In this document: positions 3,601-29,713 of the stretch, piece by piece
How positions within the stretch are numbered: the first letter of the stretch is position 1
Layout: every line of letters begins with the position of its first letter
Source: Rhizaria sp. SCN 62-66
Taxonomy: Eukaryota
DNA length: 56,445 bases
Reading direction: 5' to 3'
NCBI GenBank assembly: GCA_001724265.1
Contig: MEDY01000178.1
Coordinates: 1-56,445 of the forward strand
The notes under the pieces: generated by a model
Seen by the model: the letters and a program-made list of their open reading frames with translations, nothing else
What the model was told of the DNA's origin: nothing
The model's database searches: none
Made by a program: the position numbers and the translations under genes

Positions 3601-6481
3601 GTGGCCGCGGCGGCAGCAACGACGACGACGTCGAGGCGAAGCTGCTCGCGGACATGAAGGAGCACCTCTACCTCGACCAGCAGCTCAAGGCGCTGTCCAA
3701 GGAGCACGAGACGCTCAACAATACGCTCAACGCGAAGCAGAGCAAGATGAACGAGCTCTCTCGCGCGCAGGAGGAGGCGCGGCTGAACCACGACTTGTAC
3801 GTGCGCAAGTGCGCCGAGATGGAGCGTGAGATGACACGCGTCGCCCGCGAGCGTGACCAGGTGCTGGAGAAGCTGCGCCGCCAGCAGGACGCGACGGGCA
3901 AGGCGGCGGCGGAAAACCGGTACGCGAAGCAGCTGAGCGAGCTGCGCGACCAGCTGACCGAGGTCAAGAGCAAGCTGCGCATGGCCGAGAAGGCCAAGAC
4001 GCAGGCGGACAACGACGCGCGCCTCATCGTGGACCTGCGCGAGCAGATCATGGCGATGAAGCGCGACAAGGTGGCACTGGCGCAACAGATGGAGGACAAG
4101 GTGAGCCGCCAGCGCGAGCAGGTGAGTGAGCGCGAGCGTCTGCTGAACCAGCTGCGCCGCAAGTCGCGCCGCGACCAGTACGAGACGACCGCGCTGCGCC
4201 GCGACATCAGCAACAAGGCTGCCGTCATCAAGCGACTGCAGACCGAGGTCGGCGCGCTCAAGCGCCGCATCAGTCTGTTTGACGCCCGTCGCGCGCGCGT
4301 GATGTCTGTGCGCGAGTCCTCCCGCCGCGCCCTCGAGCGCAGGTATGTTCCCATTCTTTCGATCATCATCAAACAAAGCAAATATTTATTGAGCTGATTT
4401 TTTTGAAATGCGATGTCATTTTGTTGTATTTTCGAGATTGCTCAATAATTTTATCTTGATTTTTATGTTGATTAATCAATATCTTTTGCTTTGTTTCTTT
4501 GTTTTGCATTTTCTTCGATCTTAGGGCCCCGTCGCAACCCCCGTGGAAGGCTACTTCCGTCCGCCGCGGTGGCACTTTCCCCACTGTCGCGACCAACGCC
4601 GCCGCCACGTGCTCCGGCGCGCCCGCCGGCAGCGTGAGCGTCGTCGTCGGGCAGCAGCAGCAGGGCCTCGTCGCGGCCGCTTCGCTGCACTCGTCGGCCT
4701 TCGCCTCTGCTGCGAACAACAGCGGCAACACTGGCGCGAACGCTTACTCGTACACTCCCGTTCCCGGCACTGAGGGTGCTGAAGAGAGCGGCCTGACTTC
4801 CGTCGCCGCTGCAGTCGCCTCCGCCTTTGCGCCCGCCCCTGCCCCTGCCCCCGCAACGGTTGACGCGAGCATCGTGGCTTCCTTCGCCGCCGCCCTCGCC
4901 ACGTCTGCGAGCACTGATGCTCTCAACAGCACGAACGGCAACAAGAGCATTGATGCAAACGCCACAAACGCCAGTGCTGTTGTTGAGAACAAGAACGACG
5001 CGAAGGCTGCTGACGCTAACGATGATGATGAGAATGAGGCGGACGTCAGCGTCTTGCACCTCAACCTCAACAGCAACGGCTCTACCGCCGTGGCGGCTTC
5101 CGGCGCCGACAACGAGGACGAGTGCGATGCCATGCCCAAGCTGCCTGCCGTTTCTTGCCTCACGCCTCAGCGCAACAGCAGCGCTGCCGCCGCTGCCGCT
5201 TCTACCGACGCCGCTGGCGCTAACAAGGTCAAGATCGTCGGCTCCCCGTCGCTGTCGATGTTCACCCCCAGCAAGCTGGCACAGGGCTCCAGCTTCCAGC
5301 CGCTGCCGCCGCTCTCGTCCTTCACGGTCGACGACTCCGCGCTCACATCGCCCTCGCGCGCGCGCTACCTCGCCGCCGCCGCCGCGGTCGTCTCCCCCTC
5401 GCGCGCCCGCCTTATGCTGTCTGCCGCGTCCCCCATCCGCTCCCCCCTCCGCAGCACCACCAGCAGCAGCGCAGGCAGCAGCATGAGCGGCATCGACCGC
5501 GATGGCAGCGACGCGGGCGTGAGCGGGACTATGAACGCCGCTGTCGCAAGCGTCGACGCCGCCTGCGGCGACAGCGCCGTCGTGCGCAGCCTCTGCGAGG
5601 ACGACCTGGACATGGTGCGCTCGCTGCTGCCGCTACTGCCTGCGGCCAACAGCGACAGCAACGACGTGGCCGACTGTAACGGCCACAGCGAGAGCGACTC
5701 CGCTGCCGAGGGCCCCAGCGCCAGCGCGGTTGCTGCTGCTCTGGAGGCCGAGGCCGAGGCCGCGGCTGCCGCTGATGACGCCGAGGCTGACGCTGATGCG
5801 AAGGCAGAGGCTGAGGTTGACGCTGACGCTAGCGCTGAGGCCGATGCTGAGGCTGTTGCGGTCCCGTGGCACGGCATCGCCCACGAGTCCGCCGCCGCCG
5901 CCGCCGTCTTCGCCGCCGCTGCGGCCGCCGCCACCGCTGCTGCCTCGAACCCTGTTGCTCCGGCCTCCTCCAGCGGCACGGCGACCGCGGCCGCGGCCGC
6001 GAACAAGGGCGCGACGGGCACCGACGCTGTTACCGCGGTCTTCGCCACGGCCAAGGCCGAGGAAGACAAGAGCATGGGCGCGGCGCTGCTCCCACTGCGG
6101 CCGCTCTCCGCCGCGGCTCACGCCCACGGCCACGGCCACGGCCACGGCCACGCGGACGGCGAGAACGCCGCGACCACGGCAACCGCCCCCGCGGTGACTG
6201 TGAATCCGGCCGCGGGCGTGTCTCGCGCCAGCCTCGGCCGCCGCGGCCGGCCGCTGTCCACGTCGAGCGCCGCGAGCGCTGGCGCGGCCGCGGCTGCGAC
6301 CGCGGCGGCTAGCAACGGCGGGAAGAAGCAGCCGTTCGCGGCCGTGTCCGCGGCTGACGCGGCCGGCAACAACGCAAGCAGCAGTGCTGACGGCAGCGGC
6401 GGCAACGACAGTGCACCTGTCAAGACTACTCGCTCGTCTGCGCGCATCAGCAACGGTAACCCTCGCAAGTCTGTCCTTTAA
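667..6481 (+). CDS. Kinesin-4-like (KIF4/KIF21/KIF27 type) N-terminal motor kinesin, ~1823 aa, 3 exons
   Basis: Exons 667-1695, 1857-4342, 4525-6481 with phase-consistent GTACGT..CAG and GTATGT..TAG introns. Motifs: [11 protein letters not shown]-loop GQTGSGKT, switch [10 protein letters not shown], switch [53 protein letters not shown] coiled coil and a low-complexity tail follow. Stop TAA. Confidence 0.9.
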
Positions 6482-7339: not shown

Positions 7340-10300
7340 TTAAATGTCCATATCCATCTCCATATCATCGTCACCGTCGTCGTCACCATCATTCGCGCCG
7401 GCCACTGCAGGCGCAGCGGTAGCAGGTGCAGCCACAGCAGGAGTCACAGGGGACGTAGGCTTCTTCACAATAGCAGCAGCGGAAACGGTCGGCTTCGCGA
7501 TACTACTTGAGCTCTTGCCAAAGTCGTCCTCATCATCTTCATCGTCATTGTCATCGATGTCAGAGCTGGAGGTGAGGTTCATTTTGATTGAGTCAGATTC
7601 GTCACCGTCCAAATCACTCTTGTCACCGCCAGCAGCAGCATTCACAGCGCCAGCGCCGGCAGCGGCAGCGGATGCGACAGTATTAGTGTTGGCGTTGTCG
7701 TTTGACTTCGCGTTGGGTGACGCAGCAGTTGTTGCAGACAGAGGCGAGATCGCAGAAACTGGAGAGATCACAGCGCCGCGCGAGGTGTCCGAAAGCGGAG
7801 AGGCAGCGGAAACTGGAGAAGGCGATGACATTGGCGAAATGTCTCCGATGCTCGCAGCGGCATCGTCAGCCTCAGCGTCACTGCCGCTAGCGAGATTGAT
7901 GTCGTCATCATCATCAACGCCGTCATCGTCGCCGTCATCACCGGCAACGGAACTCGCGAGAGCAGCGCTCGCACCCTCGTTCGCACTTGCGGCGGCATTC
8001 GCGGTGGCCTTCGAGCTCGAGCTCGGGCTCGGGCTCGCGACGGCGGCGTCGGTCGCCTTGACGCTGGTACTTGGACTGGCTGTCAACGCGGCAGAGCCCG
8101 TCTTGGTCTTCGAGCTGGGACTCGCGAGGACGGAGTCAGCCTTGGGTTTCGGGGTCGCACTCGGGCCCGCGGCGACATCCACTGCGAGCTTCGACTCCGC
8201 AGCCTTCGGACTGGCAGCAGCAGCGACAGGCTTAGGGGTCGCGGCACCCTCGGAGGTGTCGGGGGTCGACGGGGTCGCTGCCGTTGCGGCGGGCCGAGGG
8301 CTGCCGGCCTTCGGGCTCGTGGCGGCCACAGTAGCCGTCGCTTCCGTCTTGGGGCTACCAGCAACGGGAGCGGCTGCGGGCTTAGGACTAGCAGGGGCAG
8401 GCGTCTTTGCAGCGCCCTTGTCATCCTCCGCGGCGTCTGTGGCGTTGACAGCGTCATCGTCGTCGTCGCTGCTGCTCGCAAACAGGCCGCGGCTGTTGTC
8501 ACTGTCACTGAGGTCGACGTCGTCCTCATCCTCGTCTTCATCCTTGTCAGCCTTAGCCTTTGCATCAGCCTCACCCTTGGCCTTAGCCTTCGCCTCAGAT
8601 TCAGCCTTGGCCTTCGCCTTTGCTTCCGCATCGGCCTTGGTCTTGCTTTCTGCTTCAGCTGCAGCCTTCGCATCCGCGTCAGCCTTTGCTTTAGCGTCAG
8701 CATCTGCTTTAGCCTTAGTCTTGGCCGCAGCCTCAGACTCAGCCTCCGCAGCAGCCTTCGCCTCGGCCTCAGCAGCAGCCTTTGCCTTAGCCTGGACCTC
8801 AGCTTCGGCGTCTGCAGCGGCCTTGGCATCAGCTTCAGCCTTTGCATTGGCCTCGGCATCTGCCTCCGCTTTGGCTTGAGCATCTGCCTCCGCCTTGGCG
8901 ATCGCCTCAGCAGCGGCAGCAGCCTCGGCAGCGGCAGCAGCCTCGGCAGTAGCAGCCTCTGCCTCAGCCTTGGCTTTGGAATTAGCTTCAGCATCAGCCT
9001 TGATCTTGGCATCAGCAGCAGCCTCATCCTCAGCAGCAGTCTGAGCGGCATAAGCTTCCTCAGCAGTATCAGACGCCGCCTCAGCCACCGGCTTAGCATC
9101 GGCATCAGCATCTGCCTCAAGCTCGGCAAGCAGCACTCTCTTGGTGCTCTCGGCGGCGGCGTCGTCAGCATTCTCAGCCTGAGCACCGACCGCGCTATCA
9201 TCATCATCAACTTCGTTGTTGTCAGTGGCGTCCAGCGCGTCAGCGTTGTTGTCATCGTCACCGTTGTCGCCAGCAATGTTGCCGCGAGTGCCGCCGTTGT
9301 TGCGCCGCGAGGCCGCAGTCACCAGCGGCGGCGACATCGGCGCCGGCACCTTGGCCACGCTCTGCTGCACCTGCAGGTGCAGCTGCGCCTCCTGCTGCTG
9401 CTGCGCCGCCAGCGCTGCGGCGCGCTGCCGCTCCCGCTCCTCGCGTTCCTCACGCCGCTCGCGCCGCTTGCGGGCCTCGTCCTCGAGGCGGGCCGCGGTC
9501 TCCGCGCTCGCCGCCTGCGTCTCGTCGAGCGCATCCTGGGGGTGTGAATCAGTGATGAGAAAGCAAAGGGAAACATAGGGGATGAGTTGAACAGGACGAT
9601 ATAGAAGAGGATCGAAGCAGCATGATGAAAAATACAGTTACCACACAAAGAAATACGAGTCAATACAAGTTAATAACTACATTTCATAGAAACATGTTTC
9701 AAAGCCGTTACAGTAATATGATATTGACGCACCTCTTCGTTTCCGGTGGACACATCAAGTCCCAGCGCCTTCGAGGTTTGCACCCGGCTGACCACAGCGC
9801 CGAACACGGCGCTGCCGCCCGCCGCAGAGCCCGCGCCCGCGCCCGTGCCCGCAGCGCCGGTGGCGTTGGCGAACCCGCTCTTGCTGTTGGAGCTGCCGGT
9901 GAGGCTCGCGTTGCTGTTGCTGGTGGCGAGCGCGCGGCGGCTCGACCCGGGCGGGCTCCCCGTCACGGTCACGCTCTCACCGTCGTCACCAGCCGCCGCG
10001 CCCGCGCCGCCGCCGCCGCCGCTGGGGTTCGCGGCCGACTGCGGCGCCGTGAAGGGCTTGTACTCGCGCTCATAGACCGACAGCACGTTGTTTCCGCGCA
10101 GATTGCCAAGAGACGACAGACGGCCCCACTCTACAGCAGCCGCGGCGTCGAAGGCCGGCGACTGGGAGCCCGCGTTCGCGCCCGCGCCGTTGCCGTTGCC
10201 ATTGCTATTGTTGCTGTTGTGGAGGTGCGTGTGCTGCGCGAGCCGCGGCTGGTACATCGACGTGGCCTTGACCAGCGCGGGGTCGTGCGCCACCGCCTTG

Positions 10301-11737
10301 TAGCCGCCGTTGAACAGGGACATGCTCGCGGGGCCGCCGGCGCCCGCCGTCGCGGCGCCACTGCCGTTGCGCTTGTGGATCCCGCCCGCGCCACTGGCGC
10401 CGCCCGCCGCCGCTGTGGTGTTGGAGGGGAACCGCGAGCGCAGGCCAGGGCGCGGGGACGACTTGTTGCCGCCGCTGCCGCCGCCGGGGTTGAGGGAGGC
10501 CGCGTCTCTGAAGCCGTCGATCGCCGTCGCGGCCAGCGCCACGACAGAGCGGCGGCGCACGCTGCCGGCGCTGTCGCCGGCCGCGTTGTCGTTAGCGTTG
10601 GCGCTGCTGCTGCCGCTGTTGTTGTTAGCGCTGCTGCTAGAGTTAATCGCGGGCGTGCTGGCGGTGTTGTCGGACGAAAGCGCACTGCTGCTGTTGCTGC
10701 TGTTGTTGCTGCCGGCGCCACCGTAGCTGGCATTATTGCCGCCGACCAGCCCCAGCATCTCGTAGTACAGGTACCCAGCCTCGGCCGCCGCCTCGGCCGC
10801 CGCCGCGCGCGCTGCTGCAGCTGCCGCGGCCGCCCGCGCGGCAGCGACGGCTGGCGCCTTGGCCTTGGCCTCGGCCTCCGCCGCAGCCGCCGCGGCAGCC
10901 TTCTTCTTCTTGGGGCCCGACTTTTTCGGTCCCGGCGACGCCGACCCCGACCCCGCCGACACCGACGCCGCGCCCGCGGCCGCGAAGCCGTCGCCGTGGT
11001 CGCGGCTGAGCACGGCCGCGGTGGTGGCGGCGAGCAACACAGCGGCGGCGTTCGTGGTGGGCACAAGCACAGGCGCCGTCACCGCCGCGCGCGCCTTCGC
11101 CGCGGCCTCGGCCTCGGCGGCCTCCGCGGCGGCCACGGCGGCCCAGGCGAGGCGGCGCGCGCGAGCTGCCTCGCTGGCGGCGGCGGCGAGCGCAGCCGTG
11201 TCCACCGTGGCCTCTTCGAGCGCTGAGAGCGACTGCGCGTTGCTAGACCCCGAGCCAGAGCCAGAGCCAGAACCAGAGCTAGAGCCAGTCGAGCTAGAGC
11301 TCGAGCCTGAGGAAGATGAGGATGCGGAGATCCCGCGGTTCGCGAGCCAGGCGGAGGCCGAGTCGAGCGTCGCCGCGGCGTCGGTATGCAGCCGCGTGAG
11401 GATGAAGTCGCGGTCCGCGGCCAGCAGCGCGAGGCAGCGCAGGCGGCGCTCGGCCAGGTCGGGGAACTGCTGCAGCTGCGGCGTGGGGACCGAGGCCAGC
11501 GCGGTGATGCTCAGCCGACTGGACGACGCAGTTGCGCTCGCATTCGCACTAGCGCTGAAACTGCTGCTGTTGTTCAGAGGCGGGAGCAGCATCGAGCCGC
11601 TGCCCACAGTGCTGCCGGCGTTGAGAGCGCCCGCACCCGCGCTGGTTGAGGTCGCAGTCGTCGTGGTGGAGAGGAGCGAGAAGATGTCGGGGTACTGGTT
11701 GTGCTCGCAGTCATTGACACCAGAGACACTTACATTC

Positions 11738-11778
<41 letters not shown>

Positions 11779-14700
11779 TTGCTCCCAGTGAGGCTGCTTA
11801 CGGGCAGACGCAGAGTTGACAGCAGCCGAATTGACGCTCGTGTTGCTGCTGCTCGGCGCAGCGGCGGCTTCAGTAGCTGCTGTTGCCGCGGCAGCGGCTG
11901 CAGCGGCGGCGGCGACCTCGGCGAGCCTTGCCTCGACCAACTTGCGGCGCTGCACGTGCCTCAACTCGAGCGGGGAGCCGACGTAGCTTGCATCATTAGA
12001 GCCAGCGTTAGAGCTAAAGCTAGAGCTAGAGCTCAATGACTGCAACTGAGACTGCGCCTGGGCCAGGGAAAGCAGCGACTGCGAGCTAGTCAGAGAGCGC
12101 TTAGATCCGGAGGCGCTGAGCGTGTAGTTGCCCAACGGCAACCCACTTACATTGCCGGCGTTGCCGCTGTGTAAGTAGGCGGCCGAAGCAGACGCCTTAA
12201 GCAGCTGCTGCTGCTGTTGCTGCTGCCTCTGGCTAAACTGTCCCTGCGCAAGCTGCTGCTCTTGCTCTTGCAACTGAGGCTGGGGAGGCTTCGGCTTGAG
12301 CTTGCTCCCGCCGCCCGCGCCGCCGCTGCCAGCGCTGTTGATACTGCCGCTGCCGCTGCCAGAGCCCGCGCCCGCGGCGGTGCTAGCCGGGGGCAGCGGG
12401 GCGAGGCGCGCGGCGGCGGCGAGGTCGAGCCGAGCGCGCTCGGCTAGCGCGGCCATCTGCGCCAACAGCTCGCAGGGGTCCGCGCCGAACAGCGCGTTGT
12501 GCTGCGGCGGCGACTGCGCCGGCTGCGGCTGCTGCTGCTGGGTGGTGTTGCTGTTGTTGTTACTGCCCGCGTTAGCAGTGGCGGTGGCGGCGGCAGCGGC
12601 GGCGGAGATGCGGGCAAACACATCGCTCACACTCACGTTGCCGGTCTCAGCATTAGCACGCGTGTTTGCGCTAGCGTTCGCATTGGTGGTGTTGTTGTTG
12701 CTGTTATTGTTATTGCTGTCGCCGAAGCTGGAGCTGGCGGCAGCGGAGGCGGCGGCGGCGACGGCCGCGATGTCATCGAGGGAGACAGGCACCGGCGCCG
12801 CGGTCCACGACGGCAGACGCCAGTCGTCCTGCTGCTGCAACTGCGCAGAGCCCGTTTGCTGCTGTTGCTGCTGCTCAGTGGCGGCACTCTGCATGGGCTT
12901 CGCAGTCGCGGCGCCGGCGTTCGGCGGGGTTGCGAAGCTGGCCGTCTTAATCTTGCCATGCGCAGAGCTACTGCTGCTGCTAGAGCTCGAGCTGTTGTTC
13001 GCGCCATAAGCGTTGTTGTTTGAGAGGTACTGCGCGGCAAAGATGGCGGCCCACTGCAGCTCCCACACCTTGGCCTCGCCGCCGACCCAGTCGTCGAGCC
13101 ACTCGCTCCCACTGCTAGCGTTCGGAGCACTCGCCGCGCTCTCGCTGGGGGCGCTCGCCGCGGTCACGCCGCTAGAGGAGCTGCCCGCGTTCGGATTTGC
13201 CTGAGTGTTAGCATGAGCGTTTGCATTAGTGTTTGCACTGGCAGTGTTGTTGGCAGTCTCGGCGTCAACCTCGGCCTGAGGCTCGGCAGCCACGTCAGTC
13301 TCAGCGTCACTCTGCTGTTGCTGTTGTTGCTGCTGCTTTTGTTGCGGCTAAGGCTGCTGCTTTGCCGGGGACGGCGGCAACAGCGGGCACGGAACTGCGT
13401 TGGTCGCGTTGACGGCCAGAGCGGGCTGCAGCAGCGCCTGGTAGTACGACAACGACGACAACTGACCCTGTTGGCCCTGCGACTGCTGCTGCTGCTGCTG
13501 AGCGTTGGTGATTGCACTCGCACTAGACGCGTTAGCGTTGTGGTTGTTGTTGTTGCTTTGCTGGAACTCTTGCCAGCGCTGCAGAGCGCGAGCAGTGCTC
13601 AAGACGCCTACTGCGGCGTTACTAGCATTCGCACTCGCACTGTTGTCGCCTGAACCAGTCACTGACTGCTGCTGCTGCTGCTGCTGCTGCTGGTTGTGGT
13701 TGTTACTGCTGTTGCTGTTGTTGCCGCTGTTTGTGCTCGTGCTGCTCGCCGTGGTGATGACGGCCGCCGCGGCCAGGAGCGCGACCCGTTTCAGCACCGC
13801 GTCCAAAGTTAAGCCGTCGCCCTGCTCACAGTCGCCGCCCTGCTGTCCACAGTCATCGGTGCTAGAGCTAGAGCGGTTGTCGCCATCAACTTTTCCGCTG
13901 CCCTTGGCCGCGCTGCCGTTGGTCGGGGGCGGCGGCGGGGGCAGTGGACACAGAGAGAGCTGCAGTTGCTGCTGCTGTCCGCGCTGCTGCTGCTGTGCGG
14001 TGGAGCTGGTGCCGTTGCGCTGCAGCTGCGGCTGCGCGTGGAGATTCGCCTGCGAGCCGAAGCTGCGGCTCAGGCTCATATCGCCAGCATTGCCATTGCC
14101 ATCGCCGTTGCCGTCGCCGTCGTCGGTGTCGGCGTGGGTCGCGGCGTAGACGTCGTTGCCTTCGCCGTTGTCGCTGTCATCGCCGTCGCCAACATTCGCA
14201 CTCCTTTGCTGCTGTTTACTGGCCTGGCCGGCGTCATGCGTGTTGGCGGTAGGGTGCGAAGCCAAGGGCACACCCATTTTATCGGTCCTGGTGCGCGAGC
14301 GTGTCTCTTTCTTCTGCGCGCGCGTCACCATCACGTTCTCGTAGCCCAGCACGGCCGCCTTACGGGGCACAATGAAGCCTACAAAGACGGAACATCGCAA
14401 AAATGGCCAAGAGCATGAATATCATAAAAGAGCGGAGGCGTGAGTTATGAATCCACAAGCATCATATACAGAGGTATTAAATACAAACATGATATGAACG
14501 ATAAACACAGTATTGCATGTTTCGCGAGCTCTTACGAGTTATGTTCAACTTGACGTGTTTTGCTCAGACTTTGCAACGTACCTGGGATGGCGCCCGCGCG
14601 CGCCGAGTCGGCGGCCGCCAGCAGGGCCAGCGCGCTCGCGCCGCTGCCGCCGGAGCCGCCAGAGCCCGCGCTCGCGGTGGCGCCGACGTTCGCGCCGCCC

Positions 14701-14902
14701 TGGGGGCCGTGACCGTGGCTGTGGCCGTAGAGCGTCGCGGTCGATGGCGACATAGCGAGTTTGGCGCTCGAGATCGAGCTCGTCAGCGGGTGGTAAAACC
14801 GCGGGTCCTCCGGGTGCGTAACTCGGTTGTCGAAGTTCCACTCAGACGCCGCGCCTGCGCCCGCCGCGCTAGGGCCAGAGCCGCTGCTGACAGTGGCGCC
14901 GG

Positions 14903-14939
<37 letters not shown>

Positions 14940-15251
14940 GATGGAGGCACCGCGGCGCGGGGGCGGGGGTCCGGCCGAGACAGGCACGGACGGCGCGAGA
15001 TAGAGGTGCAGCGCGGCGGTGGAGGCGGAAGACGCGGAGCCGTCGTTGTAGTGCGCGCGCGTCGCCCCCGCAGCGCCGCCGCCGCCGCTGCTGGTGCCGG
15101 CGGGCTGGGAGAGCGGCGGCAGGAACGCCGGCGGCGGATGCTGCGGGCGCAGGTGCGAGGCCGAGGCGCCCGCGGGGGGCTGCGGGCGACCCGGGGGGCT
15201 GTTGTCGCGGCGCAGCTTGAGCTTGGGGCCCTTGCCGGAGGAGATGATCAT
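7340..15251 (-). CDS. Very large low-complexity protein of unknown function (~2503 aa, 3 exons) containing one in-frame TAG
   Basis: Exons 15251-14582, 14378-9733, 9535-7340 with GTACGT..TAG (phase 1) and GTGCGT..CAG (phase 0) introns. Exon 2 stays in frame end to end across a single TAG at 13350-13348. The model joins four ORF-track entries. Stop TAA. Confidence 0.7.
8545..9030 (-). repeat. Coding Ala/Lys/Glu/Asp-rich repeat (AKAEA/AKADA units), predicted long alpha helix
   Basis: Translation ...ADAKIKADAEANSKAKAEAEAA...AKAEADAQAKAEADAEANAKAEADAKAAADAEAEVQAKAKAAAEAEAKAAAEAESEAAAKTKAKADADAKAKADADAK... Confidence 0.8.
13348..13350 (-). other. In-frame TAG codon inside an exon (candidate sense codon)
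   Basis: AAG CAG CAG CCT TAG CCG CAA CAA AAG CAG = KQQP*PQQKQ. ORFs 13348..14400 and 9670..13293 share the same frame. Confidence 0.75.
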
Positions 15252-15787
15252 GCGCAGAACGGGACTTGAAGCGCGGCGGGTGCGGGATGCGGCGGGAAAG
15301 GGCGGGGAGACGGGCCGCTGGGGATAGTGTTGCTGCGAGTAGAAAACAAGGGCTACAGCTGCAGGAAAACCGTCACTGCAAAAGAAAAGAATTGTTTCAA
15401 ATAATTCAAAACACGATTGTAAGAATACCGCCATTAACATTTAAACAGAGATTTGATGAACGAGATAATCTTATTCTCGGGATGATGGCCAGGTGCACAA
15501 GACGACCGTTATTTTTCTCGGCCGACCTCCAGACCACCGCCTCAGTCGCGAGGCTTAAGTTGTACAGACTCTCATGCCTTATATTGACCGATAATGTTGC
15601 ATTTGCAACAACTGCGCAAAAGAAGGATGCAAAATATCATATATAATTTTTACTCATACCGACCGTGCTCGCCTTTCCTTGTCAACTCTTCCTTGCAGTC
15701 TTTCTCTCGCCACACGCTCGTCCCCCATCAGCCCTGTCCCCGCGCCCGCTCAGTGCCCGCTTCCCCGCACGCGCGCCCGCCCGCTCC
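15252..15787. promoter_or_regulatory. Short divergent (head-to-head) intergenic region, probable bidirectional promoter
   Basis: Only 536 bp separate two oppositely oriented start codons. The core is AT-rich, with acceptor-like YAG tracts on each side. Confidence 0.45.
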
Positions 15788-18499
15788 ATGTCTTCCTCAT
15801 CTACGAGCGGCCCTTCCGTGCGTGCGCTGATTGTGCTGGACCCGAGCACGCAGGCCTCGGCCGTGCTGCGCGTCTACCCCCCGTCCGCCACCTTCAACCC
15901 AGCCTCGAGCAGCACCAGCAACATCAACGCCAGCGCCGCGGGCGCCAACGGCAATGCGCTTGTGCCCGTCTCGGGCGCCGGCGCGGCGGCGGGCGGCGGC
16001 GGCAGCCCCGGCGGCGCGGGCGCAGGCCTGCTCGCCTCCGTGCCCTCCAAGGCAACCAACGCTTCCGCGGCCGCCGGCTCCGGCTCCAGTCTGCGCCGCC
16101 CCAGCTCGGGCTACGACCCGAACGCCGGCGCTGGCGGCTCCGGCGCGGGCGGGGGCGGGGGCGTGCAGTCGCTGTCATCGCTGTACCAGGCGCAGGCGCA
16201 GTGGGAGGCCACCGTGCGCGCATCACGGTTCACCAACAGCGCTAACAACAGCAACAGCTCTAGCAACGGCAACCATGGCACCACGAGTTCAAGCCCTGTC
16301 GGCCCGAACAGCGGCAATGGCGCTGTCGGAAGGCTCACTGCGTATCCCAACGTCCAGCCCCCGACTGCCGCGATGAATCCAACAAACGCAACCAACGGTG
16401 GCGGCGGCGGCGGCGGCGGCGGGGCGGTTGCAACTGTGACGGCCTCATCTGCCGCAGCTGTCGCGGCCGCTGCGAACAACGTCTACCGGGCCGACGCGGC
16501 TGCTCTTGCACACGCGTACGGCATCGACACCGCCTCCGCCACACAGCAACAACAGCTGCAGCTGGCCTATGACAACAACAACAGCAGCAGCAGCGGTGGC
16601 AGCATTGACCCTACCGAGAGCAGCAGCAGCCACGCTAGCGACGGTCCCGACGACTTGCGCGCGCTGCTGCAGTCCGAGAAGCTCTCCTACCAGCGCTCGC
16701 GCGTACAGGCGGCCTCTGCCTCGCTGTCCGCGGCCGAGGCATCGCTGACGGCGCGCCGCGTGGCGCTCGCCAGGGCTGAGGCCGCGGCCGCGGACGCGGC
16801 GGCGCGCGCGCAGGCCGACGCCGAGGCCGCGGCGGAGCGCGCTCGGCTCGGCGCCGAGGGGCCTGTCGCCGTCATCGTCGACCGCAGGCGGCCTAACTTC
16901 GGGCACGGCGGCGCGGCGCACGGCCACGGGCACGGGTACTACGGGCCTCAAGCAGCTGTCGGCCCGGCCGGTCAAAGTAACGGCTATGACCTGAATAGCG
17001 GTTACTACAACTACAACAACAGCAGCAGTAGTAACGCTCCTCAGTACTATAACAACCCCGACTACGCGGCTAACAGCTACCAGAGCGGGGACCACCGGTA
17101 CTTCACTAGTGGTAGTCACGGCGGCCACAGCGACTACGTTGCGGCCGCGCTTGTGGCGAGCCAGGGCGGCATGGGCACTTACACCGTCAGCCCCTTACAT
17201 CCCTTGAACGACCCCTTACAGGCCGCGAACCGCACGTACACGCTCGGCGCTGCGCCCCCACTTACATCTGCGCCAACCACTTACCCTGGCACTGGCGCGA
17301 ACTACGGCAACAACAACGCCAACAGCGCTGCCTCTAGCTCTAGCTCTAACTCGAGTCACATCAGTGGCAGCAACGCCAGTGCCAGCGCCGCGGCCGCCGC
17401 ACTGCCTCTGCCGCGGCCGCTGCAGCTGTCGGCGCTGTCCTCTGCCTTCGCGGCGACGCAGGAGGCGGTGATTCTCGCCGACGCCGCCGCGCCACCCGCG
17501 CTGCGCGCCACGGGCCACGCACGCGCCGCCCCGACCGCGGCCGCCTACGCCTCCGCCAGCCACCACAGCCTCGTCCCCGCCGGCGCCAGCGCCAGCGCCA
17601 GCGCCAGCGCCAGCGCCAGCGCCAGCGCCAGTGGCAGCGCAGGTGCCAATAGCAATGGCAGCAGCAGCAGCAGCGGCAACGGCAACGGCGCTGTTATGGT
17701 AGGGAACGGCAACGGCGGCAGCTTAGTCGCGAGTGCGAGCGCGAGTGCGTTATCAGGCTCTAGCTCTGGCTCTGGCTCTAATCTCGGCTCTGTGGTCGCC
17801 GCGACCGGCGCTGGCGCTGGCGCTGGCAATAGCGTCAGTGGGCCGATGCAGTGGCAGTGGCAGGGGCGCGGGCAACAGAGCTTCACCAGCGTTAACAACG
17901 GAGCTACTTACACCGGTGTAAGTAGTCCTGGAATGTACTCTGCTGCCCCTGTCCCTGCGAGCAGCAACGCCAGCAGTGATTTCTACTGGCTGCAATCGCA
18001 GACTCAACCTCAGCTGCATTCGCATTCGCAGCTCCAAGTCCAGTCGCACCCACAGGGCTCTGGCGATGTCTACTCGCAAAACACGTACAGTAACAACGGC
18101 CACGGCAGCGGCAACGGCAACGGCGGCGCTTACCCTGTCAGCGGCACCGATTACAGTGTGGGGAACAAGGCCTACGGCTCCGGCTACGCTGTCAATGGCA
18201 ACGGCAACTACACTGGCGGCGATAGCTCTATGGGTGTTTATAATAGCGCCAACAGCTTCGGAGGCTATAATCATTACCCGCAGCAGCAGCAACAGCAACA
18301 ACAACAGCAGCAGCAGTATTACGCCAACAGCAGCAATGGCTATGGCGGCAGTACTGGCGGCTACGGCTCTCACCCCACCAGCTACGGCAACTACACCAGC
18401 GGTGCTGGCTATGGCGCCGGTAGCAACGCCGGCTACGGCAGCGGGGGCTCGGTCACTGCCGCCGCTGGGGGCCGCGTTGTCGGCCTGCGCTACCATTAA
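15788..18499 (+). CDS. Intronless low-complexity protein (~903 aa) with a short central coiled coil and a Gly/Tyr/Asn/Ser/Gln-rich prion-like C-terminus
   Basis: Long ORF with first ATG at 15788 (MSSSSTSGPSVRALIVLDP) and GC-rich coding-like codon usage. Stop TAA. No recognisable catalytic motif. Confidence 0.75.
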   Translation: MSSSSTSGPSVRALIVLDPSTQASAVLRVYPPSATFNPASSSTSNINASAAGANGNALVPVSGAGAAAGGGGSPGGAGAGLLASVPSKATNASAAAGSGSSLRRPSSGYDPNAGAGGSGAGGGGGVQSLSSLYQAQAQWEATVRASRFTNSANNSNSSSNGNHGTTSSSPVGPNSGNGAVGRLTAYPNVQPPTAAMNPTNATNGGGGGGGGGAVATVTASSAAAVAAAANNVYRADAAALAHAYGIDTASATQQQQLQLAYDNNNSSSSGGSIDPTESSSSHASDGPDDLRALLQSEKLSYQRSRVQAASASLSAAEASLTARRVALARAEAAAADAAARAQADAEAAAERARLGAEGPVAVIVDRRRPNFGHGGAAHGHGHGYYGPQAAVGPAGQSNGYDLNSGYYNYNNSSSSNAPQYYNNPDYAANSYQSGDHRYFTSGSHGGHSDYVAAALVASQGGMGTYTVSPLHPLNDPLQAANRTYTLGAAPPLTSAPTTYPGTGANYGNNNANSAASSSSSNSSHISGSNASASAAAAALPLPRPLQLSALSSAFAATQEAVILADAAAPPALRATGHARAAPTAAAYASASHHSLVPAGASASASASASASASASGSAGANSNGSSSSSGNGNGAVMVGNGNGGSLVASASASALSGSSSGSGSNLGSVVAATGAGAGAGNSVSGPMQWQWQGRGQQSFTSVNNGATYTGVSSPGMYSAAPVPASSNASSDFYWLQSQTQPQLHSHSQLQVQSHPQGSGDVYSQNTYSNNGHGSGNGNGGAYPVSGTDYSVGNKAYGSGYAVNGNGNYTGGDSSMGVYNSANSFGGYNHYPQQQQQQQQQQQQYYANSSNGYGGSTGGYGSHPTSYGNYTSGAGYGAGSNAGYGSGGSVTAAAGGRVVGLRYH
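17585..17632 (+). repeat. (GCCAGC)7-8 hexanucleotide repeat encoding (Ala-Ser)n
   Basis: Seven perfect GCCAGC units followed by GCCAGT. Confidence 0.9.
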
Positions 18500-18963
18500 G
18501 CGCATTGGCGCGCTTTAAAGAACAATATGAGTCAAGCGCTGTTGTCGACATCGTTATCACTTCTACTTTTTAGTTACATAGCTCACGTTTCACCTTTTCA
18601 TGAAAGTAACACAAATCAATACATCAATCAGTTTTGCTAACGTGTTAGTTCTATTTGTGCAATAATTATCAAAATCAATCAGTGTCATATCACACAAACT
18701 ATCTCGCGCAGACGCATCTAAACAATGAATATAAACTCAATCCCTTTCCTTTCGCTGACGCACATCGAGCATGTGCAATCCTTTCTCACGTGCATACATC
18801 TCAACAGATCTCCAATCTATCCATCGATCGATCGATCGAAATAAGACAGAAGTCTGACAGCGACGTGCCCAAGAGGACTGAGTCACGGCCACTGCCTCAC
18901 ACAATCGCTTACTGACAACTGTCTCCCAGTCACCCACTCACTCTTCTGCGGCTCCGCCATGCG

Positions 18964-21141
18964 TCACTCGACGCCGCCGTAAGCTCCGGCAAGGCCGTCG
19001 CAGTCCATCGAGCGCATGCGCCTCTCAGCCAAGTCCCGCGCGCGGCCGGCACGGTAGGCGTCTGCGTCAAAGCCTCCAAAGTAGGGGTGTTTGAGGGCCT
19101 CGTCGGCCGTGATGCGCCGTAGCGGATCCAACGTGAGCATCTGCACCAGCAGGTCCACGCCCTCGGACGGCAACGAGGGCACGAAGTGGCCCAAGGGCTT
19201 GCCTGGTTGGCGAGGCACGAGAGGCGAGAGACGAGAGAGCAAAGGAAACACAATCGTGTGGCATTTAGGTGTTATTGTGGTGAGCAAGTGAGTGATATAC
19301 ATCGCGTTTCTCAACATTGGATCAACATAAACAATCAAAAAATGAGATTACAATTGAATAAAGCGTGGTAGTCAGGTACCTGGGCCGTGCTCAACGATCT
19401 TGATGTAGATGCTCGCCAGCGGCAGCGCCGAAAAGCCGGGCCAGTTAGCCTCGGTGGGCGCGCCGACGATGGAGAAGATCTTCTTCACGACTTCCATCTC
19501 GGTCTGCGCGGCGAATATGATCTCGCGGGAGATGAACTCGGCGAACACGGCCCCCGCGCCCCAGACGTCCGAGGGATACGAGTACTGCTCCGAGCCCAGC
19601 ATGACCTCGGGCGCGCGGTACAGCGCCGTACACCGGCGCGCTGTAATCGGCCGTGCCGACTGCTCCACGGGCCGCGACATGCCGAAGTCGGCGAGCTTGA
19701 GCGTGAACGAGTCGAGGAACAGGAGGCAGTTGGAGGGCTTGAGATCGCGGTGCAGCAGCCCGTTAGCGTGGAGACAGGCCAAGCCGCTCAGCATGTCGTG
19801 CAGAAACAGCTATAGACATACACAGAGAGCATAGAGCGTAGAGGCACACACAGGGGCAGACGCATGCAAAATAGAAAACACACAATGGGGTGTTTTGAAA
19901 TAGAAAATGAGTACATTCAGTGTGTCATTGTTGTCGAGTTTACGGAGTAATGTTGGGCGTTGAACAGAAGCGGTAGCGTAATACGCAAGTAATTGATAAA
20001 ATAATTACGGCAGAAAGAATGATAGATATGCTTTGCGATTCATTCCATTCTCTTACGCCTCGTGGTCACAGGAGCAGACCGTACCTTGCAGTCCGCTTCG
20101 GTGAAGGGGTACTTTTTGATCGCGTCGGTCATGGTGTGGTTCGCGAGCTCAAGCACGATGTTCAGCGACTTGGCGCCAGCGGACCTGGCGGCCTGGCACT
20201 CGACGTCTGTCCGCGGCTGACTCCAGAACGTGTCGAGATACCTACACAGGAACAAAACAGAATATAACAGCGTCACACATGTTAGCCCGTCGATCAAGCA
20301 CGCAATTACTTGTAACCGCAGCACAGCAAAGGGACACACAAAAACCCACACAGCTTGTACAAAGTTACATCGACAAGAAACATCGCAATTTTAGGAGTCT
20401 GCAATGGTACATAACGTTTGCAATGATATAATCGTAGTATGAGACTTACTTGACAATGTTTGGATGGTCCAGCGTTCTGAGGACCGAGATTTCCCTCAAT
20501 GCGTCGTTTTGCGTGCAGTAGTCCATGGCGATGTCGAGTCGCTTGATGGCAACGGAGCGCACGACGTGCGTTGTGCAGTGCGTGCTGATCGCTGAGGACA
20601 CATGGCCGTACGCGCCGCGGCCGATAGGGCTCTCGGCCTCGTACCTGAACTCGCTCACACGTGGCCATTGCCACTGCGCCTGCGCCTGCGCCCGCGCGTG
20701 GAGATGCTGCACCGGGGCCGGGGCCGGGGCCGGGACCGGGGCCGGAGCGGGGGCCGGAGCGGGGGCATGGGCGGGGGTGAAGTCGCGGCTGCCGGCGGCC
20801 GTGGCCGTGACAGCTGTGATCGAAGCGGCGGCGCTCACATCGCAAGCCTCGCCCGAGTCGGCGCTGCCGCTGCTGCTGGGGGGCTGGCCATCGGAGACGC
20901 GGCGGGAGCGCTTAACGCGAGGGTCAGCGGTGCTGTCGTCGTCGTGGGTTTGACCATTGCTGCTGCTGTTGGGCTCTCCCGTGGCAGCGGCGTCGGTGGG
21001 GCGGGAGGACGGAGGGGCGTTCGCGATGTTGTTGCTCTGATGAGAGGCGAGTGCGCTTGTGTCCTCAGTGTTGACTCGCGGGCCATCCAAAGAGTCGCTT
21101 GCGCAATCTGTGGGCAAGGCGCTGGGGGCCGTGCGCTTCAT
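18964..21141 (-). CDS. CDK-like (CMGC group) Ser/Thr protein kinase, ~505 aa, 4 exons
   Basis: Exons 21141-20450, 20241-20085, 19809-19380, 19202-18964, all phase-consistent. Motifs: IGRGAYGHV, VAIKR, ALREISVLRTLDHPNIV, HRDLKPSN, LADFG, YRAPEVMLG, DVWGAG, MLTLDPLRRITADEALKHPYF. Stop TGA. Confidence 0.92.
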
Positions 21142-22168
21142 TTGAGATCAAACAGTCGTGTCAGACGCTGGGGAAGAGGGGCTTGGTGGCTGAAGGAAAG
21201 GGCGGTGTGGAAAAGGAGGATATGAGAGTTGAAGTATCAATTTTCAAGAATATTAATTATAATAAATGCACAAAAGCACGCTGGAAATCTATATTCCCTT
21301 GGGAATCTTTAGTGTCGGGATCTGCGCGAAGTTTAGTATCGTCCAAATGTCGAGAGATGAGCCGACATCTGTTAGGCGACCCATTGGCAAGCGTTTATCC
21401 CAAAGATTGCCACGGGGTTATCATACATACATGTAAGCAATTGTACCAAATTAAACGGATATGCAAAATTAAAAGTCTAGTTATCCGACGCCAAATTGCA
21501 GTTATCTTTCTGTGGCTTTGACATATTGGCCGGATTCGAGGTCTGGCCGAGTCCGTTGTCAGTCATTGTCTTGTGGCGCTCTTGGGGGACTGCCGGGGTG
21601 TAAGCATATATGACTAACACAAAATGTATCGCTATATGTTATACACTCACAGATTGTATGGTAGACGTTTTATATGGTGCTTTACCATAATTATACGCCC
21701 AATTAGCCGTTTTGTGCGATATGCATGTCATGTGTGCAGGGTGTTGGAGGGAATGCTACGAACAAATCGAGGGGATACACACTCAGGATCGAGACCATAA
21801 GAAAAATATTGCAATGTTGTAATGATAAAATAAGTTGTAAACACAATTAATGTGTATCATGCATGTGAAAGGTAAAATATGGCTTGAAGTACCACCAGAT
21901 ATGGGATACTCTTAACTGACTGAACTTGAAAAAATGTAGCGGACTCGACTCTCATTGGTACTAAAAACGCAAAACGATTCATTTAACTCATGAACGACTG
22001 CCAACGTTGCCCAGTCTTTTGTAAGGAGTGGTTTTGGTTGTGTAGCACTTATTAGGCTGTCGCGAACTGTCCACACACGCTCTGACACACCAAGTTGATG
22101 GCGGCGGACATTGCGTTGGGCGACAAGATGCTTCGATGCCGAGCGCAATGCAGCAAATGTCAATGTGA

Positions 22169-25100
22169 TCACTCGTTTTTGGTATTATCAGCACTAGCCC
22201 TGCTTTCGCTGCGGCTGTCATAGTCGCTGTTGCTATAGCTGCAGCTGTAACTGTCACAGCCATCGGAGCCTGTGATCGTGTTGCTGTTGCCCTTCTTACT
22301 GTTTGTGCGAGAGAAACTGCTGCCACAAACACTGCTTCTTTCTGTTGGCGTTGTTTTTACAACTTTTAACGCGACATGGGATGCTGCGGTCGCCATAGCC
22401 GTTCCACCACCACTTGCAGCGCTCGCCAGAGCCGTATCATTGCCAACAGTCGGGGGAGCATCAGCGAGATCATTTGTTGCGCCCTTATGTTGCGCTTTGG
22501 TCAGCTTGTAATGATTAGACTGCGAGCGCAACAGCGAACTGCGCGCAGCGGATTGACTGTGAGATGGTCGGTGACTGTGAGTGACATTGCTGCGTGCGGA
22601 GGGAAGATCTTGAATATCACTGCTTAAGCTGCTACTCGCGCTGCTGAAATCCGCACCAGGCGTGTTTGCACTTGCGTCACTAGTACACAAGGCGAGTTGG
22701 TGATAAATCTTTGCATCATGGGCTGCTCCGATAACTGGAGCAGCAACACCAGCTGCTTTGGAAAGGGAGGCGGCAGTTGCCTTAGTGTGTGCAGATGTTA
22801 CTGGGACAACGCACAGTTGCCTTTCCAGCAAAAAAGGCTTTGCCGCGTTGTTGGTAGTGTTAGCGCCTGTTGCGGCTATGTTTGCATTGCTGGTCTTGTT
22901 AATCGTTGTGCATGCGCGTGCATTTCCACTCGGCGTTTGCGTCCGTGGTTTTACAGCTTCACTCTGGGCTTGCGCTCCCAACTGTGGCTGCATTTTCTGC
23001 TCTTGTTTCTGCTGCGCGACATGCTCACCAATCCAAGGCGTGTTGCGCGGGGGTTGATGCTGTTGGGGCTGCTGATGTTGACGCTTGCTTGACCAGGAGC
23101 GACTTTGACGTAGCGGTAAAATCATGCTGCCCACTTTGTCGTTTTCACTATCTCCAGAGACTGTCTGATTAATGACACCCGTACACTTGTTTGTAACGCC
23201 ATGCCTGCAATCCTAGCTGTTGTCTGCGTCACTGTTGCGAATATAGTTTGGATCAATGCTAGCGGCGCTGCCAGAGTACTGAATACGGCGGTTTGCAGTC
23301 GCCGTGGTGACTCTTGCTGCTGCACCAGTTCTCTCTCTCATGCCAGCCTCCGGTTGCTGTTGAATGGCAGAGCCCGCTTGAATCGGCAATGCAGTGTTAA
23401 GATCAGACGACTGTGAGCCCAACTCGCTGCCGCTGACCAGCAACTGCGAACGCCCGTGGCTCTGTGATAGCGGGCGAGGTGACAGTAACTGGACGGATTC
23501 ATCCCTGTTTTGGTTACTTGCAGCCTCTTCCTGCTCCAGTGTTGCATAATAATACAGCCCAGCTGGCTGCTGCTGGAGTTGAGCTTGCTGCTTGAGCTCA
23601 AACTCAGAGCTTCCGAACGCTGCTTGCCAGTACAGATGGCGGCTCTGCTCTTGCTGCTGCTGTAGCTCAAGTGACGACGGCATTGGTAATGGGCGCAGTA
23701 GCGACGGAGATGTCTCGATAGATGTACCCACATTGTTGCTATTTGCTGTGCTGTTACGAGGCGTCGCGTTAGTAACGATGTTGATCTGTCCCTTGTTGCT
23801 CACAGTCACCGGTAAGCTTAGCATCTTGTCTCCAACACGCGCCCCACCGACATAGCCTTGTTGTCTTTGCGCCTGTGTTGCGTTGGAGAACCCATGGTTG
23901 GCGTGTAAATAGCCCTCGGAGCGCTCCTCTGATAACACGCGCGCTAGCTTACTTGATTGTGGCAGGACGTGCGCACGATGCTGCAACTGAGCGTCCGCAA
24001 ACTGAGACTGCATTGTACACTGATTGACTGGGGTGATTACCAGGGTATTTGCATCAGCTTCAGAATCCGCTGCTGTTGCTGAGGGCATAGTTATACCGTT
24101 CTTACTCACTGTCAACTGCGGGCACAGTCTCTGAATTCTTGGTTCATCACCCTCAGCAGGTTGATGCGTTGCATGAACTTGCTGGAGCGACCGCGACTGC
24201 TGTAGCAGCGGTGCTTTCAGCGACTGCGAACGTGGCGGCAGAAGGCTTTCGTGCTGCAACGGTTGCAGCTGCTTCCTTTGCTGCTGTTTTGGATTTGCTA
24301 AATGCAGCATAACCGACTGGGTTGGTGATGGCGAGTTTGCAGAAACTGACAGCGACGGCGAGGTATGATTATGCTGCGGCAATTTTTGAGAGAGAACATC
24401 ATGAACAGACTGCTGCTGTTGCTCTTTGACTAAATCAAACGACGTGAACAACGGCATCGTCGGCTGGGTCCGTGCAACGAGGGGTGAAGACGCGGTTGAA
24501 CTAAGGCTGCATGCCCGGAGTTGCTGTGGCTGCCACCGAGGCGTGCGACCGACGTTTTGCTTTCGCTGCGCCTCGCTGCTCGCGCTGTCCGGGACAGGAT
24601 GGGGCGTGCACTCGCGGCCTGAGACACTGATAAAGTGACTGTGCGCAGCGGTGTAACCGTGAGCAAGCGGAATTGCAGCGCTTGCTCCACCGGGAGACGC
24701 AAATGCCGGCGCTTGCTGCGTCAGCGGAGACGTAAACAGTGACTCGGATAAGACATCTTCATCATCATTTGTAACGTTGCTACTATCTGCGAGGTTGCCG
24801 TATGTGTAGTAGGTCCTGTTCCTGAGATTATGCTGGCTCTGTCCACCGTCATTCGACTCAAAGTCATTGTTGTTAATGTTGTTGTTGCTCTGCAACAGCA
24901 GACTCTTGTTTCCACCACCGTCAGAGTTGTTACGATCCTCGATAGAACTGTTGCTGCTGTTGTTACTGCCACTGTTCCATACGTCAAAGCAACACGCGCG
25001 CGAGCGGCTCTCGCGCAAACTGCTGGCAGCTAACGCCTTCGCGCCGTTGCTGTTGCCAGTTGTTGAATTCACTGAGCGCGAGCGCTGCGGTTGCACCTGT

Positions 25101-26488
25101 GATTGTTTCTGCAGACTAACCCCACCCCGACTGTCGTCTTGTGTGCTGTCATGGTGGAACAGAACTGCCACAGGAAGCGTTTTGCGCTGTAACCGGGGCG
25201 ACAAGATTAGTCTTTTTGACTGCGGACTTTGTGCGTTGTGCGAGTAGGCGTGTTCACGACTATAAGTGCCAGCGTGGACGCGGCTGGGGCTTGTAAGTGC
25301 GCCGTCGCTGCTGCATGTCGAGATAGAGCTCACGTCGCTGCCGTCACTACTATCGCTATTCTTATCGTGACTACTGTTGCTAGTCGAGCTGCCGGTTGAC
25401 GAGGATTGCAAAAACGGAATAGAGCAGCAGTTGCGGTACATGCGGGATCTCTTCTGCTCACTTGCCCTCGCAACAGACGCAACTGCGGGCAGCCGAGACA
25501 CAGCGTGTCTGCAGCTGTCGGCAGGGCAGGCAGTGCGGGCGTTCGCACCACTACTTGTGCTGCTGCTACGCGCCCCCAAGAGCGCCAGCAACTGCGCTGG
25601 GGACTAAGAGCGCACGTGTAGTTGCTCATGTGCGTGCACAGGCTTAGGCGTATACGGAAGTGCGGTTGCGCCAGCGGCGTCGCTGCCATCTTCGCCGCTT
25701 CGGTACGCAGTCAGTGTGCGCGCAGACACAATGCCCTGGGCAACAACAGGCTCCGCGCTACTCCTGCTGTGCCAAGCGCTATCAGTTACGGTAGCGCCGT
25801 CAAAGCAGCCGCTCGCGTCAATGCCAGGTGCCATCACAGTCTTGTTTGCAACAGCAGCAGCGGCATCCGTGCTCCTGATCTTGCTGCTGTCGTCGCCGCC
25901 GCCGCCGCGGCCGTCGCTGCTGCTGCTCCTGATAATGTCACCGTTATTGTTGACGTCGTTGCTGCAAATTGTGTTGTTCTTAGTGAGCATGTCGAGAAGC
26001 GTTTCATTCTCTTGGTCCCCATCACACTTATGAGCGCTTGATTCGTTGAGTTTCCCAGTCTTGCCGTCGGTCGCTGTTATCACGATGGCAGGCGAGGAGG
26101 GCTGCCACAGCGTGAAACTCGCCGCCTCGCTGTAGGTCTGGGCGGCGTGACTGTGGGCCGGGTGCCAGTAGGGCGGTGGCGGCGGCGACAGAAAAGGACG
26201 GCGGCTGATGCCACTACCGACACCGGTCCTGACGAGAGTGTCTTGGCCGCTATTGATAGCGATACTGTCTGGTCCGTCAGAGTGGCCGCTATCGTCATTG
26301 CTGCTACTGCTGTTCAGCGAGTGGTTGTTACATGGTAACATCGATCCATTTTGCCGCTGCTCGTAGTCGCTCTCCGAGCTGTTGTTTGGCGTAACATCGG
26401 AGAACCGGCGCTGACGCACAGCGTGCGCGTTCGACCTGAGCGACGGGACATGCGCAGCACTCAGCGGGCTGCTGACATCGTTGCCCAT
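22169..26488 (-). CDS. Intronless Ser/Gln/Asn-rich disordered protein (~1439 aa) with a possible N-myristoylation signal and two in-frame TAG codons
   Basis: ORFs 25604..26557, 23213..25591 and 22169..23134 are one reading frame broken only by TAG at 25606-25604 and 23215-23213. ATG at 26488 gives MGNDVSS. Stop TGA. No frameshift and no AT-rich intron. Confidence 0.62.
23213..23215 (-). other. In-frame TAG codon (candidate sense codon)
   Basis: GAC AAC AGC TAG GAT TGC AGG = DNS*DCR. The frame then stays open ~347 codons to TGA. Confidence 0.65.
25604..25606 (-). other. In-frame TAG codon (candidate sense codon)
   Basis: GTG CGC TCT TAG TCC CCA GCG CAG = VRS*SPAQ. The frame then stays open ~796 codons. 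Confidence 0.65.

Positions 26489-27289: not shown

Positions 27290-29713
<2,424 letters not shown>

Follow-up and report, generated by a model that had tools for sequence, protein, structure and literature searches.

The analyzed window, a stretch of DNA of 56,445 nucleotides, contained 12 gene models with 14,483 codons, on which the code statistics given below were based. These comprised two kinesins, a CDK-like kinase, an enolase, a C-terminal fragment of what is presumably ribosomal protein L14 (no database match), a gene that we take to be 5′-nucleotidase-like, and six genes without a Pfam family. In-frame TAG triplets were present in two of the 12 genes, designated tag1 and tag2 (Table 1).

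Table 1. Coordinates of the tag1, tag2 and enolase features within the window.
Feature	Position	Strand	Remarks
tag1 exon 1	14582..15251	-	ATG at 15251
tag1 intron 1	14379..14581	-	203 nt, GTACGT...TAG, GC 0.39
tag1 exon 2	9733..14378	-	4,646 nt, AG/GT ends
tag1 in-frame TAG, codon 567	13348..13350	-	CCT TAG CCG; QQP*PQQKQQQ; letters unchanged in X3 and X4 contigs
tag1 intron 2	9536..9732	-	197 nt, GTGCGT...CAG, GC 0.38; frame preserved 3′ of the TAG
tag1 exon 3	7340..9535	-	Ala/Glu/Lys repeats and acidic tail; stop is TAA
tag2	22169..26488	-	one exon, 1,439 codons, GC3 0.58, ends with TGA
tag2 in-frame TAG, codon 295	25604..25606	-	HVRS*SPAQ; within X4 contig 24444-26182
tag2 in-frame TAG, codon 1092	23213..23215	-	DADNS*DCRH; X4 contig 21140-23938, X6 contig 22520-23402
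Enolase	27290..29713	-	six exons, ends with TAA; serves solely for placement of the organism

The three exons of tag1 are joined into a single frame of 2,504 codons with the final TAA included (2,503 codons without it), and the only stops in this frame are the TAG at codon 567 and the terminal TAA. The initial annotation had placed the TAG in the middle of a 4.6-kb exon in a Gln/Pro context, and this was confirmed: the minus strand at position 13350 reads AAG CAG CAG CCT TAG CCG CAA CAA AAG CAG, and the surrounding protein sequence is KQQP*PQQKQQQQ. The canonical splice sites and matching phases described for this exon were also found, with one frame running through both neighboring introns, and the description of about 2000 downstream codons having no ATG, acceptor or AT-rich region of their own near the break proved accurate. 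Thus, 1,936 codons lie 3′ of the TAG, the first in-frame ATG is 152 codons away (position 12894), and no AT-rich island is located close to the break, since the GC content of 150-nt windows is 0.56–0.71 throughout 12600–14324, compared with 0.37 in the adjacent intron. Exon 2 consists of Q/N/S/A low-complexity tracts with short ordinary-looking islands in between, and its GC3 is 0.78 5′ of the TAG and 0.79–0.84 3′ of it. Both coding variants among strains that were detected 3′ of the TAG are synonymous and poorly supported, one being located beside a repeat and the other originating from a single contig with a depth of 3.2. The same GC3, the in-frame intron 2 and these synonymous variants are weak indications that the part of tag1 3′ of the TAG has not decayed. 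Neither a Pfam family nor a HMMER relative was found for tag1; a 471-aa part of it spanning the TAG had no matches among 1.84 billion proteins, and the comparison with Atlas gave no usable match.

Gene tag2, which had escaped the initial annotation, contains two in-frame TAGs, while TAA, TGA and frameshifts are absent inside its frame. In 300 simulated sequences of matched composition, the longest run free of TAA and TGA reached at most 587 codons (mean 254), as compared with 1,439 in tag2, and a frame so far exceeding the simulated runs is a genuine coding frame. Its relatives in Atlas were limited to sub-threshold leads, and the Atlas model of the middle frame had a pLDDT of 0.32. A shorter tag2 variant (P0147) has the C-terminus EIGRAHV, which is presumably a translated Illumina adapter; because of this adapter-like end, it was not counted as an additional truncation.

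The stretch or a part of it was contained in 12 of the 14 runs listed, four of which contained half or more of its words; the runs containing it were bioreactor, wastewater or activated-sludge metagenomes. Run X1 is a possible source of the stretch, whereas X7–X12 shared only a small portion of its words. Strain comparison was performed using contigs of four of the 14 runs (X3–X6) against positions 9300–26700. Position 13350 was covered by a contig of run X3 (study P2, 2017; 12773–13657) and by a contig of run X4 (study P3, 2025; 12953–13657), with no other letters in either. The X4 contig over TAG 25606 had two differences, both away from the TAG, and the X4 and X6 contigs over TAG 23215 had none. 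All three TAGs are genuine DNA in long, otherwise intact open frames, and between them they recur in runs from studies P2, P3 and P4. The heterozygous or erroneous call at 13350 considered in the initial annotation was thereby checked: a base-call error was ruled out by the identity of the independent contigs, and no second allele was listed among the contigs, from which rare variants get dropped, so that a rare allele is possible. The sampled strains are near-clonal, with seven listed variant places in 17.4 kb between X3–X6 and the window; therefore, the presence of the TAGs in several studies points to fixation in a near-clone and not to long-term tolerance.

The splicing event near 13350 that had also been considered was evaluated against the 24 introns modeled in the window, which are 146–276 nt in length, with a GC content of 0.27–0.51 and donor scores of 7.4–15.1. 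Within 400 nt, the best donor of a frame-keeping intron removing any of the TAGs scored no more than 1.0 (−1.0 near 13350 and 1.0 near the tag2 TAGs), and the GC content of the candidate introns was 0.52–0.70. A hidden intron of the organism's own type was ruled out, since both the donor scores and the GC content of the candidates are unlike those of real introns. In the RNA-labeled run X5, a tag1 contig reads through intron 2 unspliced and therefore represents DNA or pre-mRNA; among the RNA contigs listed, none bridged a TAG site, a gap in cover that carries no evidential weight. Artefact or hidden splicing, i.e., a wrong base call, collapsing of a heterozygous site or removal of the TAG by a non-canonical intron, draws on this lack of a true transcript over any site and on the unspliced X5 contig, whereas the same letters in independent contigs at all three sites and the donor scores and GC contents given above argue against it; such an explanation is considered highly improbable.

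The 12 genes end with TAA (six genes) or TGA (six genes), and none ends with TAG. The chance of such an absence is 0.28, 0.14, 0.07 and 0.03 at a TAG share of 10, 15, 20 and 25%, respectively; in the non-coding DNA of the window, TAG accounts for 210 of 1,227 stop triplets. The significance of the missing terminal TAG is weakened, since protists with the standard code may use UAG as a stop only rarely, as in the fornicate Euthynema, where it was reported for 7 of 170 genes (PMC9161772, in the part of the text available). All three internal stops in the 12 models are TAG, with no TAA, TGA or frameshift. Under nonsense mutation, three TAGs out of three would have a chance of about 0.2, a value that refers to a small sample, and single-base nonsense mutations yield TAG in 74–77% of cases in tag1 and in 48–53% in tag2.

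These data are compatible with the standard code if both genes carry fixed loss-of-function alleles: a recent CAG>TAG change would truncate tag1 at 566 aa, tag2 would be a pseudogene of recent origin, hit twice by nonsense mutation, and both would be carried by a near-clonal lineage spread through bioreactors. TAG is the commonest nonsense product in both genes, and the few variant places among runs of 2017–2025 mean that the alleles can be young. All three coding variants of tag2 among the strains are non-synonymous, as expected for a relaxed or dead gene, and one further nonsense mutation in tag2 would need only about 30 neutral substitutions, i.e., a divergence of 0.7%. The Gln-like context at 13350 would be the outcome of CAG>TAG in a polyQ tract, and the rarity of TAG is accounted for directly. 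However, this explanation requires two broken genes among 12 neighbors, one of them hit twice, with TAG arising each time and with 11.8 kb of coding DNA rich in repeats remaining free of frameshifts, and it leaves the absence of terminal TAG in all 12 genes to chance (0.07–0.28). The two variants 3′ of the tag1 TAG being synonymous also speaks against it, as does, weakly, the absence of an uninterrupted allele: six read-through versions (five with Gln and one with Leu) had no counterpart in a set of 15 billion proteins, the comparison having been made by exact matching with guessed starts. Compared with ordinary fixed or strain-specific nonsense alleles, the present case is similar in that one base change leads to TAG in genes rich in CAG, in the near-clonal strains and in the non-synonymous variation of tag2, whereas a coincidence would be needed for two genes in 56 kb, three stops of the same type and the lack of both frameshifts and terminal TAG. 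Taken as a whole, fixed nonsense alleles are a serious possibility, held at somewhat below an even chance.

The frequency of TAG inside the frames was compared with that of other triplets and with that in published codes. TAG (three occurrences) is the rarest internal triplet among the 14,483 codons, followed by ATA (6), CGA (8) and AGA (13). CGA and ATA are themselves close to absent. With 10% of the codons, tag2 accounts for 70 of 158 uses (44%) of eight of the rarest sense codons and for two of the three TAGs, and tag1, which carries the remaining TAG, is second (26 of 158). Consequently, the TAGs occur where rare sense codons occur, since the same two genes lead in rare-codon use; this co-occurrence is also compatible with genes under weak selection. 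Counted as Gln, TAG would make up 0.4% of the codons for this residue (3 of 680), and counted as Leu, 0.3%; across Gln, Leu and Glu, the range is 0.3–0.5%. If the residue were Gln, a share of 6.5%, the lowest published, would correspond to about 44 TAGs, and the probability of three or fewer is about 1e-15. No TAG occupied a conserved position, the kinesin motor, enolase, CDK and nucleotidase models containing none, and the genes with TAG have no detectable relatives. Neither tRNA genes nor Rfam matches were found in the window.

Nuclear codes in which only UAG is reassigned are known, including one from Rhizaria (exLh; PMC5304391, in the portion of the paper available). According to the accessible part of PMC11687900, the published UAG-only codes have UAG as 6.5–32% of synonymous codons and in 78–91% of genes. 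The code of Iotanema and Hartmannula (UAG is Gln; UAA and UGA are stops) resembles the present case in that internal stops are UAG only, gene ends are TAA or TGA, and the context of the main site is Gln-like. The two cases differ in that, among Gln codons, UAG in codes of this type has a share of about 8% (Iotanema; PMC5304391, in part), 18.5% and 31.8% and is found at conserved Gln positions, whereas here its share is 0.4%, 2 of 12 genes contain it, no conserved site carries it, and the lineage is another one. In exLh (Sainouroidea), UAG encodes Leu, with 384 UAGs in 71 genes (PMC5304391, from the same portion), and in the TARA phyllopharyngean MAGs it also encodes Leu and accounts for 6.5–10% of Leu codons (PMC11687900, in part; NCBI table 16). 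Both share with the window the UAG-only pattern and the scarcity of UAG in highly expressed genes, and Rhizaria may be the broad group common to exLh and the owner of the window. In contrast to these values, only three TAGs occur here in 12 genes, and the context of 13350 favors Gln; in addition, exLh lives in an insect, whereas the present DNA comes from a wastewater organism. Thus, with respect to the UAG-only codes of tables 15 and 16, the window has the internal stops of such a code and lacks its widespread UAG (0.3–0.5% versus 6.5–32% of synonymous codons; 2 of 12 versus about 80–90% of genes). TAG is at least 15 times rarer than in the published UAG-only codes, whose supplementary codon tables may hold cases of lower use. 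High UAG use is typical of the published codes but does not define them, since these codes were found through common UAG. The objection based on rarity is softened by the strong GC3 bias and the avoidance of TA-containing codons; in Blastocrithidia, the share of UAR codons drops as the GC content rises (PMC12153298, in the part available). Among the titles and partial texts of the open-access literature, exLh was the only rhizarian or wastewater UAG code found.

The residue that UAG would encode was evaluated with a context model trained on 11 window proteins. At 13350, enrichment was 9.5–14-fold for Gln, 0.8–1.4-fold for Leu, about 1 for Trp and less than 0.3 for Glu; among the codons one change away from TAG, CAG occurred between two prolines five times and TTG did not occur there. 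Since the context enrichment is Gln-like, the codon at 13350 is almost certainly derived from CAG under either reading, to judge from its sequence surroundings. Of the two residues initially proposed, Gln or Leu, Gln is therefore favored at this site, whereas at the two tag2 sites its enrichment was 0.3–1.3-fold and it is not favored. The motif QQPLPQQQQ near 33970, which had been cited as making Leu plausible, does exist, but its Leu is encoded by CTG, two changes from TAG. The context products over the three sites were 3–5 for Gln, 1–2 for Leu, 0.8–1.9 for Tyr and 0.2 for Trp. Given decoding, the residue would be Gln with a weight of about 65%, Leu with 10–15% and Trp with about 10%, the remainder falling to others.

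Trp is the sole one-step neighbor for which three TAGs would be a usual share: 3 of 58 with 55 Trp codons, i.e., 5%, with a probability of three or fewer of 0.48 at 6.5%. UAG could be read as Trp by A-to-I mRNA editing (UAG to UIG), as in Fusarium, or by a tRNA-Trp reading UAG. In F. graminearum, 71 TAG genes are restored to Trp by A-to-I editing, 50 of the 71 being disordered and 6 of the 71 having two sites (PMC10776026, in the part available). Much like tag1 and tag2, these pseudogenes encode disordered proteins restricted to their lineage, and their breaks, which are rare, are exclusively TAG and in some cases occur twice in one gene. They differ from the present case in being fungal and linked to the sexual stage; the editing system is known from filamentous ascomycetes, with 71 genes per genome, whereas the enolase of the window stands apart from the fungal row, and the restored residue, Trp, is disfavored by the contexts found here (product 0.2 versus 3–5 for Gln). 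No significant hairpin that could serve as a structured signal for readthrough was found at any site (six folds, z from −1.8 to +1.1), which also argues against reading as Trp. Among the titles and abstract beginnings listed from the open-access literature, no report of nuclear UAG encoding Trp was found. Since the system is fungal and the contexts disfavor Trp, this reading is rated as quite unlikely.

An even chance is given to the reading in which a new lineage employs UAG as a sense codon of low use, with Gln as the likeliest residue. This reading is supported by the three internal stops all being TAG, the absence of terminal TAG and of frameshifts, and the lack of decay in tag1; each of these points, taken singly, is weak. 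As rough odds, a second gene with two TAGs and no other lesion, together with no terminal TAG, would be expected in under 1 in 1,000 cases under the standard code, and the prior probability of a UAG-only code used so little is low as well. The near-clonal strains, the share of 0.4% of Gln codons and the lack of a conserved TAG site count against decoding. Thus, the initially implied reading of TAG as an amino acid was strengthened by the two further in-frame TAGs, the gene ends, the absence of a removing intron and the same letters in other studies, and weakened by the at least 15-fold rarity and by fixed CAG>TAG fitting 13350 equally well; decoding and fixed nonsense alleles end close, at about even odds. 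According to a more specific proposal, UAG has lost its role as a stop in a new lineage and has entered use as a sense codon, with a frequency at least 15 times lower than in any published UAG-only code; the code change would be at an early or ambiguous stage, in an organism whose abundance in bioreactors makes it accessible to study. This proposal is plausible but falls slightly short of an even chance.

If UAG is a sense codon, an uncultured GC-rich wastewater protist would end no genes with UAG and would read it as a rare and probably slow codon, likely Gln. An eRF1 with poor UAG recognition would lose out to a putative CUA-anticodon tRNA or near-cognate tRNA-Gln; a change in eRF1 (GTS motif) has been linked to UAG reassignment (PMC9161772, in the part of the text available). 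CAG>TAG changes would be tolerated in disordered, weakly expressed proteins, decoding would yield proteins of 2,503 aa (tag1) and 1,439 aa (tag2), and the low TAG count would reflect a recent or incomplete change together with strong codon bias. Nuclear codes separating UAG from UAA are known in a handful of lineages, in all of which UAG is already common. A UAG that has gone from the gene ends and is barely used inside genes would represent the intermediate step debated by the codon-capture and ambiguous-intermediate models, and the eRF1 and tRNA changes could be dated against the change of UAG. In that case, gene callers would cut the proteins of a common wastewater protist short; the public protein set carries tag2 as three pieces. 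If the nonsense reading is right, the case is one of ordinary gene loss in a clone.

The owner of the window is an uncultured, GC-rich wastewater or bioreactor protist that may belong to the SAR group, possibly to Cercozoa, a lead obtained from the enolase sequence. The best identity of this enolase to named relatives was 72% over one exon, while the best match was a metagenome protein (85%; 89% over the whole alignment). Phylogenetic analysis was performed with 41 rows picked from the matches, fused or redundant plant rows being left out. The window enolase was included in a clade of six sequences (99/99) located among SAR and plant-type rows and away from the fungal row, and this clade was in an unresolved fork (93/63) with Mataza (Cercozoa) and Placidida. 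The N-terminal extension of the enolase, common to the clade members, has a weak match to the Dpy-30 docking motif (E 3e-4, below the cut-off), and the protein also has a WGWCK insert.

Fourteen metagenome loci matched an enolase pattern; L130 and L129 were in the clade, and the other 12, with far weaker matches (49–75% in pieces), were left out. L130 is a close relative represented by one transcript-like contig, and its enolase ends with TAA. L129 is a distant relative (76% to P0016) and covers 20 kb (1–20041) of an intron-poor metagenome contig of 148,681 bp. Its complete Sel1, GTP cyclohydrolase I, THOC1, inositol-phosphate synthase and enolase frames contain no in-frame TAG, and two of its eight long frames end with TAG, neither of them having a Pfam family that supports this end. 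L129 is a well-assembled clade member with an apparently standard code; since its genes lack in-frame TAG and two of eight frames end with TAG, any code change is probably not common to the whole clade. L129 also carries a tRNA-Arg(ACG).

As a probe for more DNA of the organism, the low-complexity motif was unspecific, with at least 120 matches on viral contigs, and no specific motif was found. A kinesin pattern gave 18 loci in prokaryote genomes, none resembling the organism, and none on viral contigs. Of these loci (L135–L152), 15 of 18 encode kinesin motor domains according to tblastn, and most look like eukaryotic contamination; L135 and L151 are located on records of 6.9 and 1.4 Mb, respectively.

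Several other genes of the window have distinctive structures. An intron-less gene of 567 aa at 30344–32047 (+), whose product has an N-terminus of mitochondrial type and belongs to no Pfam family, has one relative only, JGI protein P0145 (44% identity), and would be a good clade marker. The two large kinesin genes are located at 667–6481 (+) and 46244–36785 (−); the product of the latter has 3,032 aa, with about 900 low-complexity residues before the motor, the start of which is split by two introns. The CDK-like kinase at 21141–18964 (−) carries the usual motifs in the form IGRGAYG, DALREI and HRDLKPSN and has a low-complexity N-terminus of 165 residues. The seven-exon gene at 55376–51750 (−), presumably a 5′-nucleotidase in view of its GNHEFD motif, has a low-complexity insert of 350 residues in the catalytic part and possibly an extra 5′ exon.
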